A DNA stretch of 64,000 bases from a virus (IMGVR_UViG_3300009068_000023), one strand, 5' to 3'. Counted from the stretch's first letter, positions 46,626 through 49,321 are shown. Program-made: numbers and translations. The notes: generated by a model not told the origin, from the sequence alone.

Positions 46626-46654
46626 TTGACTTTTAATTCTGATGCATCTATAAT
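46626..46654 (+). promoter_or_regulatory. Sigma70-type promoter for the tRNA cluster
   Basis: TTGACT-N17-TATAAT. Confidence 0.85.
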
Positions 46655-46674: not shown

Positions 46675-46768
46675 CCTCCTGTAGTTTAATGGTAAAACAC
46701 CCGGCTTATACCCGGCATAGGCTCTAGATGGGGGCACGTTACAGGTTCGAGTCCTGTCGGGAGGACCA
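46675..46768 (+). tRNA. tRNA-Ile(UAU) with an atypical long variable arm
   Basis: CCTCCTG/CGGGAGG acceptor, CT-TAT-AC loop, TTCGAGT T-loop, encoded CCA. Confidence 0.8.
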
Positions 46769-46775
46769 TGTTATC

Positions 46776-46858
46776 GCCCCGGTGGTGGAATGGTAGACAC
46801 GCTGGTCTTAGAAGCCAGTGCCAAAAGCGTGAGAGTTCGAGTCTCTCCTGGGGCACCA
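46776..46858 (+). tRNA. tRNA-Leu(UAG)
   Basis: CTGGT-CTTAGAA-GCCAG; CCA end. Confidence 0.93.
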
Positions 46859-46872
46859 AATTGAGAAATAAT

Positions 46873-47064
46873 ATGAAAATTAATCCAGTTATTAACTTTG
46901 ACGTAAGCAACAAAGAACATCGCGAAGATTTTTATACGTTTACTAGGACTAAGTGCCTCGGTAAGCTTAAAAATAAATATACACTCGAAGGATGTTTTGG
47001 CGATATTGTTAGTATGATGACTGAAAAGGTAGCTAATTTTTATATTCAGAAAGAGTTCGAGTAA
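46873..47064 (+). CDS. Hypothetical protein (63 aa)
   Basis: ATG 46873 after GAGA, between tRNAs. Confidence 0.55.
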   Translation: MKINPVINFDVSNKEHREDFYTFTRTKCLGKLKNKYTLEGCFGDIVSMMTEKVANFYIQKEFE

Positions 47065-47068
47065 GTTT

Positions 47069-47158
47069 GGAAGTGTGGATGAGTGGTTTAAATCAACAGT
47101 CTTGAAAACTGTCGTGTCAGTAATGGCACCGTGAGTTCGAATCTCACCGCTTCCGCCA
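47069..47158 (+). tRNA. tRNA-Ser(UGA)
   Basis: ACAGT-CTTGAAA-ACTGT, long variable arm, GCCA end. Confidence 0.94.
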
Positions 47159-47161
47159 GAT

Positions 47162-47235
47162 CCCGGTGTAGTTTAATGGCAGAACCGCAGCCTCCAAATC
47201 TGCATGTGGGAGTTCGATTCTCTCCACCGGGTCCA
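47162..47235 (+). tRNA. tRNA-Trp(CCA)
   Basis: CCCGGTG/CACCGGG acceptor, CT-CCA-AA loop, TCCA end. Confidence 0.82.
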
Positions 47236-47237
47236 AG

Positions 47238-47265
47238 TTGACTTATATTCGATAAGTATTATAAT
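47238..47265 (+). promoter_or_regulatory. Sigma70-type promoter
   Basis: TTGACT-N16-TATAAT just upstream of tRNA-Met. Confidence 0.75.
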
Positions 47266-47273
47266 GTACGTAT

Positions 47274-47347
47274 AGCGGGATAGTGAAATGGCATCACACA
47301 GGTCTCATAAGCCTGAGTTCTTAGTTCGAATCTAGGTCCCGCAACCA
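47274..47347 (+). tRNA. tRNA-Met(CAU), possibly initiator-like
   Basis: CAGGT-CTCATAA-GCCTG; 1:72 A:A mismatch. Confidence 0.85.
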
Positions 47348-47352
47348 ATTAT

Positions 47353-47427
47353 TCCCTGGTAGCTCAGCGGTAGAGTAGATGACTGTTAATCATTTGGTCG
47401 CTGGTTCAATCCCAGCCCGGGGAGCCA
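47353..47427 (+). tRNA. tRNA-Asn(GUU)
   Basis: GATGA-CTGTTAA-TCATT; GCCA end. Confidence 0.93.
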
Positions 47428-47444
47428 AGTTAATAGGAGACATT

Positions 47445-47702
47445 ATGTCGGAGAAGGTAATTGTAAGCACATTCGAAGGCGCGCATAGTACTCGTACCGT
47501 ATATGAAGACGGTACTATTGAATTTATTACACACTATGATAAGCTTCTTAACGAAATTACTGAGCTAGGAGCACCTGTATTTTTGAATCCTGACGATAGC
47601 ATGCCTGAGCAAGTTGCATCAGAACCAGGAAGCGATAAGGTTGCAGAAGTAGTAGTTGAAAAGCCAAAGCTTCGTCGCGGTCGTAAGAAGAAAGAAGTTT
47701 AA
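47445..47702 (+). CDS. Hypothetical protein (85 aa) with a basic C-terminal tail
   Basis: AGGAG RBS and ATG 47445. Confidence 0.65.
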   Translation: MSEKVIVSTFEGAHSTRTVYEDGTIEFITHYDKLLNEITELGAPVFLNPDDSMPEQVASEPGSDKVAEVVVEKPKLRRGRKKKEV

Positions 47703-47706
47703 TATA

Positions 47707-47780
47707 GCCTCCATAGTTAAATGGTATAACACTTGATTTGTAATCATGGATTCTTGGTTCGATTCCGGGTGGGGGCACCA
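47707..47780 (+). tRNA. tRNA-Thr(UGU)
   Basis: TT-TGT-AA loop; ACCA end. Confidence 0.9.
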
Positions 47781-47784
47781 GTTT

Positions 47785-47860
47785 CTCTCTATGGCGTAAT
47801 CAGGTAGCGTACTGCGTTTGGGGCGCAGTGGTTTTGGTTCAAATCCAAATAGAGAGACCA
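47785..47860 (+). tRNA. tRNA-Pro(UGG)
   Basis: CTGCG-TTTGGGG-CGCAG; ACCA end. Confidence 0.92.
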
Positions 47861-47864
47861 AAAT

Positions 47865-47940
47865 AGGAGGTTAGCTCAGTTGGTAGAGCGTCACGCTTAC
47901 ACCGTGAATGTGATCGGTTCGAACCCGGTACCTCCTACCA
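47865..47940 (+). tRNA. tRNA-Val(UAC)
   Basis: TCACG-CTTACAC-CGTGA; ACCA end. Confidence 0.93.
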
Positions 47941-48375
47941 AACCCCCGTGTCTCCTTGGGTTTAGGAGAGGTGTGAGTTTGTGTTATGCCACAGCACTAT
48001 TGGCCAAATAGTGTCCAGAACTCTCAGGTGCCTAGTTCCACCATATGACTAGCGATTCTTAAAGATCGAATACTTTAAGCGTTCTCGTCGAAGCGTTATT
48101 AGACGTGGTCGGAGTAACCTCCCGGTCAAGTGGTTCCCTGGTAAGGAATGGCTTGGCACCTATAACAGTCCTTCTGATGAGTCTTTAGGAGACGATAACA
48201 GTAGTGCGTACAGCGAAATGGCGAGCCCTTCTTATAGGCCGTACCCAGAGTAGTCGTTACTGTCAAGGACCCGCCCCATACCTTTCGGTGTATTGGGTGC
48301 GAAGCGGAAGCTAGGGATGAAACGGTATACAATAGCGGTCTAGAACGCAACCTGTAACCTTAGTAGCGCAACCGA
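47941..48375 (+). ncRNA. Unassigned large structured non-coding RNA
   Basis: GC-elevated segment with no credible ORF and many helices, e.g. 47951-47969, 47994-48014, 48026-48032/48155-48161, 48058-48079. Boundaries approximate. Confidence 0.7.
48168..48270 (+). ncRNA. Type I hammerhead ribozyme (variant core), predicted cleavage after C48264
   Basis: Stem I GTCCTT/AAGGAC, CTGATGA, stem II GTCT/AGAC, GA(T)AA, stem III ACAGTAGTG/CGTTACTGT, GTC triplet. Confidence 0.8.
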
Positions 48376-48396
48376 ACTATCTATAAGGAGATCAAT

Positions 48397-48555
48397 ATGA
48401 GCGATGGCGGAAAAGGATCAAAACAAAGACCATTAGGTATTGATCTTATCACATTCGAAAACAACTGGGATAAAATTTTTGGTAATAAAGAACCAGAACA
48501 GGTTCTTACCCCAGAAGAAAAACTCAAAGAAGAAAAGCTTAAGCAGGACGATTAG
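48397..48555 (+). CDS. Small phage protein (MSDGGKGS..RP...FENNWDKIFG)
   Basis: AAGGAG RBS; 52 aa, below the ORF-track cutoff. Confidence 0.7.
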   Translation: MSDGGKGSKQRPLGIDLITFENNWDKIFGNKEPEQVLTPEEKLKEEKLKQDD

Positions 48556-48558
48556 TTG

Positions 48559-48587
48559 TTGCCCTTCATTCATAAGTAGACTATAAT
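48559..48587 (+). promoter_or_regulatory. Sigma70-type promoter
   Basis: TTGCCC-N17-TATAAT upstream of tRNA-Arg. Confidence 0.7.
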
Positions 48588-48594
48588 GAATCAT

Positions 48595-48671
<77 letters not shown>

Positions 48672-48676
48672 AAAAC

Positions 48677-48764
48677 GCCCGGGTGGTGAAATAGGTAGAC
48701 ACAGCAGACTTAAAATCTGCCGCTTTAAAACGGCGTACCGGTTCGATTCCGGTCCCGGGCACCA
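48677..48764 (+). tRNA. tRNA-Leu(UAA)
   Basis: GCAGA-CTTAAAA-TCTGC; long variable arm; ACCA end. Confidence 0.94.
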
Positions 48765-48777
48765 ACAAGGAGCAAGC

Positions 48778-49248
48778 ATGCTAAAAATAGATATTAATGA
48801 AGTAAAAGAGTTTATCGAAGCACAAGGCCCTAGCACAAAAATTTATATTGGTGGCGACTCTGAAAGATTCATTAATAACAATATTTGGTATGCTGATTAC
48901 ACACTCGCAATTGTAGTACACATCGACGGAAGACATGGTTGCAAGCTCTTTGGCGAGGTTCAAAGAGAACGCGATTATGATCAAAGCAAGAACCGCCCAA
49001 GAATGCGGCTAATGAATGAAGTATATAAAGTTGCAGAGCTGTATTTGAAACTACAAGAAGTTCTAGAAGACAGAGATGTTGAAGTTCATCTTGATATTAA
49101 TCCAAGCGATCTTCACGGTTCGAGTTGTATTATTAATGAAGCAGTAGGCTATATTAAGGGTATGTGTAACGTTACACCCCTTATTAAGCCTCAAGCGTTT
49201 GCAGCGAGCTATGCTGCAGATAGAATTAAAGAAGTGTTAGCTGCATAG
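48778..49248 (+). CDS. RNase H-like YkuK (DUF458) family protein
   Basis: IYIGGDS, NEV, VEVHLDI, KP.AFAASYAAD. Confidence 0.8.
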   Translation: MLKIDINEVKEFIEAQGPSTKIYIGGDSERFINNNIWYADYTLAIVVHIDGRHGCKLFGEVQRERDYDQSKNRPRMRLMNEVYKVAELYLKLQEVLEDRDVEVHLDINPSDLHGSSCIINEAVGYIKGMCNVTPLIKPQAFAASYAADRIKEVLAA

Positions 49249-49321
49249 CGGGATTCGTAAAATGGTATTACCCTAGCCTTCCAAGCTAGAGTCGCGGGTT
49301 CGATTCCCGCATCCCGCTCCA
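49248..49321 (+). tRNA. tRNA-Gly(UCC)
   Basis: CTAGC-CTTCCAA-GCTAG; TCCA end. Confidence 0.94.

Follow-up and report, generated by a model that had tools for sequence, protein, structure and literature searches.

The approximately 436 bases that follow tRNA-Val(UAC) in the tRNA array of an uncultured T4-type phage probably consist of two separate structured-RNA genes, placed end to end in the tRNA operon. We give this reading a probability of roughly two in three. The stretch is located on the + strand at 47941-48376 of the window, which is the whole 64,000-nt DNA analysed here (IMGVR_UViG_3300009068_000023). Its 5' part, designated module 1, is, by sequence comparison, a divergent member of a widespread, uncatalogued RNA family inside the tRNA arrays of uncultured phages. 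Its 3' part, module 2, is a cassette composed of a predicted type I hammerhead ribozyme and an RNA of about 110 nt, designated RNA 2. The reading is based on conservation, covariation, modularity and genomic context, which are direct observations.

Genomic setting, coding potential and constraint

All genes in the window are on the + strand. The genes for the clamp loader (gp44 and gp62) and RegA precede a 12-gene tRNA array (46675-49321), and a family B DNA polymerase gene is located farther on. Three strong, near-consensus sigma-70-like promoters are present in the tRNA array (46626-46654, 47238-47265, and 48559-48587). Each is just 5' of a tRNA, and together they divide the array into units. 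The features adjacent to the stretch are as follows.

47238-47265, + strand: sigma-70-like promoter with 11 of 12 matches; it would drive tRNA-Met to tRNA-Val, the RNA element and the 52-aa ORF
47865-47940, + strand: tRNA-Val(UAC), CCA encoded; module 1 begins where this tRNA ends
48397-48555, + strand: 52-aa ORF with a good ribosome-binding site; outside the element and missing from loci L002 and L003

No terminator-like site was found between 47265 and 48559. Thus, the stretch would share a transcript with tRNA-Met, Asn, Thr, Pro and Val, and we infer that this transcript starts from the promoter at 47238.

A first-pass annotation, made from the sequence of the window, had described the stretch as a structured, co-transcribed RNA that is not assigned to any family. 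A conserved, structured RNA without an Rfam assignment is borne out below, and co-transcription is what the layout of promoters and terminators suggests. The start at 47941 is the base right after the encoded CCA of tRNA-Val, as that annotation had it, and the 3' boundary, ~48376, is where the alignment with relatives ends. The stretch is gene-free. It had been called non-coding, and no credible ORF is present in 47941-48396, where all six frames are interrupted. It had been called GC-rich as well, and its G+C content is 0.47-0.49, compared with 0.35-0.41 in nearby coding DNA. The lack of tmRNA and RNase P hallmarks was likewise correct: ARAGORN detected no tmRNA in the window, and Rfam 15 returned no match to tmRNA or RNase P, nor to GOLLD, ROOL or other large phage RNAs that had been suggested for comparison, even at E<=10. 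A tmRNA reading was dropped, based on the ARAGORN and Rfam results.

All helices listed in the annotation exist in the sequence, at the positions it gave. Its description of the stretch as densely paired did not survive comparison with shuffled sequence: the minimum free energy (MFE) of the whole stretch has a z-score of +0.54, and its two halves have z-scores of -0.9 and +0.9. On the same shuffle test, even three adjacent tRNAs reach only -1.4. Because the folding energy is no better than the shuffled level, dense pairing is no evidence by itself, and the case must rest on relatives.

The whole element is found in a small clade of phages: the window (identical in L171 and L174), L002, L003/L081, L118/L175, and L170. 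L002 was also retrieved as L082, L093, L166 and L177, and the same element is present in a different contig, L167. tRNA-Val is directly 5' of the element in every contig of the clade that reaches far enough upstream. Downstream of the element, the genes vary: the window has the 52-aa ORF, L002 and L170 have a gene for a calcineurin-like phosphoesterase on the opposite strand, and L003 has a promoter followed by tRNA-Arg. These differences rule out the element as the leader of one particular downstream gene.

Between phages of this clade, the element is 92-98% identical, compared with 70-79% for the flanking coding DNA. Substitutions between lineages amount to 3.4% and 5.7% in the element, against 19.5% and 30% at synonymous sites of the neighbouring RNase H-like gene. 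Only four sites vary among five lineages in the central 200 nt (48094-48292). The grouping of lineages differs between the 5' and 3' parts of the element, which indicates recombination inside it. Recombination weakens the argument from rates, since the low divergence could partly reflect recent exchange, but the pattern of change within the element still points to constraint. Covariation over the whole element within the window clade alone is not significant (86 of 500 shuffles).

It is very unlikely that the stretch encodes a protein, either as a 69-aa ORF, which gene callers place in L003 and L118 (corresponding to 48045-48253 of the window), or as a TAG-recoded frame. The ORF is called on these two contigs, and frame +1 of 47941-48396 is interrupted by TAG stops only, four in number, with neither TAA nor TGA across 152 codons. 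However, relatives differ by a 1-nt indel, substitutions between them fall mostly at codon position 2 of this sole TAG-only frame, and ARAGORN found no suppressor tRNA in the window. In the window, L002 and L170, the frame of the 69-aa ORF is displaced by one base and lacks a start codon. Of the ten substitutions in this ORF, eight are non-synonymous, including six at codon position 2. It matches no PHROG family and would span the whole hammerhead. The coding readings were dropped for the frameshift, the missing start codon, the substitution pattern and the PHROG result.

Several other features were observed in these tRNA regions. The array of a related phage contains a tRNA with the anticodon CUA (L008:4491-4565), which is of the amber-suppressor type and is labelled Pyl by ARAGORN. 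A permuted two-piece tmRNA is located beside the tRNA array in L004 (4739-5174; 124 bits to RF04321 and 104 bits to RF01850), with the tag ANDEQFALAA. Another is called by ARAGORN alone near the tRNA array of L029, from about 4393.

Module 1 and its family in phage tRNA arrays

The following features constitute module 1.

47941-48167 (3' end approximate), + strand: module 1; models R2 (66 bits) and R3 (38.9 bits) match 48101-48167; family covariation and tRNA-array context
47951-47969, + strand: hairpin A, 6 bp, directly after the tRNA; three different complementary stems in L027/L324, L424/L225 and the window clade
47975-48023, + strand: helix P2 (47975-79/48019-23), enclosing a small hairpin (47980-93) and hairpin B
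47994-48014, + strand: hairpin B with the loop GGCCA; the stem differs in each of the window, L424, L027, L324 and L225 (five stems in all), and the GGCC of the loop is invariant
48027-48052, + strand: H-type pseudoknot; S1 48027-30/48039-42 and S2 48032-36/48048-52
48058-48079, + strand: window-clade-specific hairpin, 7 bp; one compensatory change from A-U to G-C and one change from G-C to G-U in L003/L118
48111-48122, + strand: short hairpin with a UAAC loop, inside the most conserved motif of the family
48125-48157, + strand: long 3' hairpin (7 bp, G.G, 5 bp, 7-nt loop), followed by ACC; 96.9% paired cells and 8 double-change pairs in 94 sequences

The family was recognized through L225, a more distant relative with a full-length element. 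A 51-nt piece of that element, corresponding to 48102-48161 of the window, matched several related phages, in which the next feature is a tRNA and not a hammerhead. R2, a covariance model of the module 1 motif, recruited further members. A degenerate motif scan of IMG/VR found at least 120 stretches with the motif; among the IMG/VR matches listed, 105 model matches with scores of 36-73 bits are distributed in 100 loci. Across 94 distinct sequences, 87.6% of cells are paired, compared with 71% after shuffling, and both motif helices together show 252 double-change cells. None of 500 shuffles reaches either observed value; fitting the alignment to the model biases the comparison in favour of the family, but the margin is large. 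Relatives with covariation, which the first-pass annotation had proposed to seek in phage tRNA clusters, do exist.

Module 1 loci carry a median of 13 tRNAs among the matches listed. The distance from the upstream tRNA to the motif is most commonly 140-160 nt (37 of 101 cases), and the gap in the window is 160 nt after tRNA-Val. The next tRNA starts within 10 nt of the motif end in 43 of 114 cases; the window and L225 have the hammerhead cassette there instead. The module 1 RNA usually begins at the 3' end of one tRNA and often extends to the next, and would thus be about 200-220 nt long. Six IMG/VR contigs (L302, L309, L317, L319, L342 and L398) have two copies of the motif in one tRNA array.

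Membership of the window in the family was also evaluated with a model from which its own clade was excluded. This model, R3, built from the 105 IMG/VR matches, scores 48101-48167 of the window at 38.9 bits (E 1.8e-9). Three pairs in the middle of the long hairpin, G-C, G.U and C-G, are shared without exception by the 94 sequences. Of these, the window clade retains the G-C pair but has U.G and G.G at the other two. With two of three invariant pairs changed, it is considered to be a divergent member of the family.

Outside the motif, MAFFT alignments of whole module 1 across subgroups were too poor for counting pairs. The 5' helices are therefore supported by inspection of the nearest subgroup (L027, L324, L423/L424 and L225). 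The insertion in L003 falls in the loop of hairpin A. In S1 of the pseudoknot, a G-C pair is replaced by A-U in L423/L424. The S2 sequences differ in L027, L324 and L424, and L003 shows a double change that preserves the register.

Most helices of the first-pass annotation correspond to covarying features in the relatives. The exception is the helix 48026-32/48155-61, proposed to close a multibranch domain. It is perfect in the window only; the A that replaces G48156 in every relative disrupts it. Its two strands form part of the pseudoknot and of the lower end of the long hairpin, both of which are conserved and covarying, and the G48156A change of the relatives preserves the pair in the long hairpin as U-A. 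The closing helix was rejected.

Neither RNA was found in Rfam or in cultured phages. Rfam 15, searched at gathering thresholds and at E<=10 with the window, module 1 of L027, and L181, yielded only tRNAs and sub-threshold hammerhead matches. No match was obtained by blastn against 50,697 cultured-phage records with the element, the L181 cassette, the L225 element or the L077 motif. Our literature searches found no description of either RNA.

A DUF458/RNase H-like gene (PF04308) is located inside the tRNA array of the window at 48778-49248. It was considered as an obligate partner and rejected, as just 27 of the 119 loci selected solely for the module 1 motif contain a homologue.

The hammerhead cassette and its modularity

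Module 2 is composed of the following features.

48168-48376, + strand: module 2, hammerhead plus RNA 2
48168-48270, + strand: predicted type I hammerhead with three stems and core; cut after C48264
48168-73/48265-70, + strand: stem I, 6 bp, open
48174-80, + strand: core CUGAUGA (C3 U4 G5 A6 N7 G8 A9); the 5' core is complete
48181-84/48190-93, + strand: stem II, 4-5 bp
48194-97, + strand: G12 A13 U13a A14; GAUAA at 48194-98, with one extra U
48198-206/48255-63, + strand: stem III, 9 bp, closing a 48-nt branched insertion; three compensatory pairs relative to L225
48265-48376, + strand: RNA 2, predicted 3' cleavage product of ~110-112 nt; compensatory changes in H1, H2 and H3
48272-48301, + strand: H1 of RNA 2
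48303-12, + strand: small GNRA hairpin of RNA 2
48313-22, + strand: conserved single strand of RNA 2
48335-48, + strand: variable hairpin of RNA 2
48360-76, + strand: conserved tail of RNA 2

The hammerhead cutting at 48264, suggested in the first-pass annotation, is well founded in its parts. All of them are present, including the A15.1-U16.1 pair (A48198-U48263) and the cleavage-site residue H17 (C48264), and cleavage is predicted after C48264. The 3' core departs from G12 A13 A14, being GAUAA and not GAAA. The only core change within the window clade is U to C at N7 in L170, which is the one free position. Against the type III model RF00008, the window scores 17 bits, far under the gathering threshold of 48.5; the canonical relative in L181 scores 27.8 bits against RF00163 (E 6.5e-5; gathering 34).

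The core varies together with stem III. L181 and L421 have GAAA and a short stem III. The long stem III insertion, which keeps a conserved purine-rich motif, accompanies every instance of the two altered cores: GAUAA in the window clade, and GUAA, combined with A as the cleavage-site residue, in L225, L423 and L424. We know of no documented active form of the GUAA core. The insertion may compensate for the altered core, or the ribozyme may be losing activity. The extra U in GAAA has a precedent: the U13a insertion is discussed among assayed natural hammerhead core variants (Perreault et al. 2011, PMC3088659). The same extra U was observed in independent hammerheads of unrelated metagenome contigs, L102:4632-4688 (= L138) and L107:723-865 (= L140). 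One of these is compact, and the other has a ~60-nt insertion in stem III.

The cassette exists apart from module 1. L181 was found by scanning for a conserved 19-mer of the 3' part. It has the same stem I, GAAA, a short stem III and the same ~110-nt RNA, between tRNA-Leu and tRNA-Asn, and nothing before the cassette resembles the first 225 nt of the stretch. The cassette of L421 resembles that of L181 and is located after tRNA-Pro, also without module 1. L225 carries a full-length homologue of 452 nt between tRNA-Pro and tRNA-Met. L423 and L424 (reverse strand) carry both modules with a 42-aa ORF between them. The stop codon of this ORF, TGA, lies within the hammerhead CUGAUGA; thus, self-cleavage would cut the message ~90 nt past the stop codon. 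The cassette was seen in only six lineages among ~420 loci, after a tRNA, module 1 or a small ORF. Conversely, module 1 is present without the cassette in L027, L077, L021 and many others.

Since each module is found alone elsewhere, the stretch is not a single RNA class, and the ribozyme is not a built-in maturation device of the 5' RNA. Both had been proposed in the first-pass annotation, which described one RNA of ~430 nt, or ~320 nt after cleavage. In other phages, the 5' 225 nt and the hammerhead with its 3' domain each stand alone, and the ribozyme heads the downstream ~110-nt RNA. The idea of a candidate new phage ncRNA class holds insofar as no Rfam family matched; what it joined in one class is two modules.

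Covariation in module 2 was evaluated with six cassette sequences (the window, L002, L003, L170, L181 and L225). Stem III contributes three double-change pairs that keep the pairing, and H1, H2 and H3 contribute one each; none of 500 shuffles equals these six. In this alignment, 95% of cells are paired, compared with 26-40% when the partners are slid. As the structure is hand-drawn and the sequences are few, this covariation is supportive and not conclusive. A pseudoknot between loop II and 48358-62 was dropped, as it is backed by L181 and not by L421 or L225.

A tRNA is located within a few bases 3' of RNA 2 in L181, L225, L423 and L424. In the window clade, no tRNA that would set the 3' end of RNA 2 directly follows it. 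The RNA 2 region of the window has a 6-nt deletion and 11 private substitutions, the changes falling in 48307-48361, so parts of RNA 2 may be decaying in this phage.

Further searches for the cassette added no lineage. Scans with hammerhead-core patterns in IMG/VR, JGI metagenomes and GTDB genomes found the same clade and chance matches in coding DNA only, and R1, a model of the hammerhead plus H1, had no match in 78 related loci. The matches of a tail-motif scan were rejected, being the N-termini of an unrelated protein.

From these arrangements, a processing pathway can be proposed. Its transcription, cleavage and enzymes are deduced from sequence. The left end of module 1 would be made by tRNA 3' processing by host enzymes, and its right end, in most relatives, by RNase P at the next tRNA. 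In the window, the hammerhead would cut after C48264 and give RNA 2 a nearly scarless 5'-hydroxyl end, leaving module 1 plus ribozyme as a 324-nt piece with a 2',3'-cyclic phosphate end. In the relatives, the ribozyme would make the 5' end of RNA 2, and RNase P at the following tRNA would make its 3' end.

The metallophosphoesterase gene downstream of the element in the L002 lineage (L002:2527-3309, - strand; also in L166, L167 and L170) encodes 260 aa and is located right after the RNA element. Some calcineurin-fold enzymes act on RNA 2',3'-cyclic phosphate ends, the type of end that hammerheads leave. A link between this gene and the hammerhead end is speculative.

Alternative readings and related RNA systems

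The stretch is unlikely to be one integrated ncRNA of ~430 nt (~320 nt once cleaved) whose hammerhead is its own 3' maturation and whose parts are joined by long-range helices. The modules do adjoin in the window clade and L225, and two long-range helices, 47976-85/48344-53 and 48023-31/48354-63, have no mismatch in L002/L003 and are preserved in part in L170. However, these two helices cross each other, and the window is mismatched in both. Their strands are conserved in relatives without the partner module (L027 and L181), which indicates that internal pairings explain their conservation. The independent occurrence of each module, and the closing helix broken in all relatives, also argue against one integrated RNA. 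Less probable still is a mostly non-functional spacer of decaying remnants, in which the extra U kills the hammerhead, the 3' domain is eroding, and conservation comes from recombination of the tRNA block. Such a spacer is consistent with the non-canonical core, the private changes and deletion of the window in 48307-48361, the different grouping of lineages by the 5' and 3' parts as a signature of recombination, and folding z-scores near zero. It is opposed by a divergence about five-fold under the adjacent synonymous rate, by changes that are mostly located in loops or preserve pairing, by a widespread family with strong covariation, and by the presence of U13a among assayed natural core variants (PMC3088659). 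The non-canonical core and the shuffled-level folding energies also count against two RNA genes, as do the departures of the window from pairs invariant in the family.

The T4 tRNA cluster also encodes two small stable RNAs, species 1 (rnaC) and species 2 (rnaD). Module 1 could be the counterpart of rnaD and RNA 2 that of rnaC, with the hammerhead replacing host nucleases at the junction, but we consider this doubtful. The genomic logic is the same: in T4, rnaD starts one base after tRNA-Arg and is followed by rnaC (AF158101, 70908-71171). Window 48131-48153 is identical to rnaD at 21 of 23 positions, with a local score of 34 against 18 +/- 2.3 in 300 shuffles, all of which it exceeds (rnaD occupies 71053-71171 of AF158101; L301:3054-3172, - strand), and rnaC has a 14-nt string resembling the conserved tail of RNA 2. 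On the other hand, neither R2 nor R3 detects anything in the tRNA region of T4, even when the filters are turned off, and blastn of the element against the 50,697 phage records, T4 included, found nothing. The matching 23 nt are the apex of the hairpin, which is freely variable within the family, and other family members show no similarity to T4. The broader proposal, that module 1 and RNA 2 are widespread, diverged counterparts of the two T4 RNAs in a conserved two-RNA system, expressed by T4-type phages along with their tRNAs, and that the GAUAA and GUAA hammerheads are a working sub-class whose damaged core is rescued by the conserved stem III insertion, is similarly improbable. Two separate RNA genes end to end remain our preferred reading.

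Whatever their ancestry, the two RNAs here have their closest precedent in T4 species 1 and 2, which they resemble in being small RNAs in a T4-type tRNA cluster, right after a tRNA and, as predicted here, co-transcribed with it. They differ in size, about 225 and 112 nt compared with 119 and 139 nt for the T4 RNAs, which have no hammerhead. Phages and prophages also carry GOLLD (RF01998) and ROOL (RF03087), structured ncRNAs without an assigned function that are often neighbours of tRNA genes. Compared with these, the present modules are far shorter and have tRNAs on either side, and Rfam gave no match to GOLLD or ROOL even at E<=10. The permuted tmRNAs of L004 and L029 (RF04321 and RF01850) resemble the element in being structured RNAs of ~420 nt, located in the same tRNA region in T4-like relatives, but neither ARAGORN nor Rfam identifies the element as tmRNA, and it lacks both a tag frame and a T-arm ending in CCA.

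Among self-cleaving RNAs, theta ribozymes process the tRNA itself. They belong to another ribozyme class, and the cut here would be 324 nt past the tRNA, freeing a non-tRNA RNA. These HDV-like self-cleaving ribozymes are located in phage tRNA gene regions (PMC10879173). Type I hammerheads of phages and prophages (PMC3088659; RF00163) share with the present one three stems, CUGAUGA, the A15.1-U16.1 pair, the GUC cleavage site, an open stem I, an intergenic location in phages, and an extra U in GAAA, which is U13a. In contrast, stem III here has a conserved 48-nt branched insertion, a conserved ~110-nt RNA is fused to the ribozyme, and relatives of the window cassette have GUAA with A at H17.

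Phage tRNA arrays are usually read as tRNAs and junk spacers, and here one such spacer appears to be two folded RNAs. The module 1 family is present in well over a hundred contigs of uncultured phages, with no Rfam 15 match where tested and no cultured representative found by blastn. It offers an alignable family for asking what the non-tRNA RNAs of phage tRNA operons do, a question that has stood since T4 species 1 and 2. With low confidence, we propose that both RNAs are stable and trans-acting, made with the phage tRNAs and acting on translation or tRNA metabolism during infection, a role of the kind supposed for T4 species 1 and 2. The natural series of GAAA, GAUAA and GUAA cores, with and without the stem III domain, could be used to examine how far a hammerhead core can drift. 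The cassette would also represent a hammerhead of the bacterial world with an evident job, as inferred from its position: formation of the 5' end of a specific small RNA.
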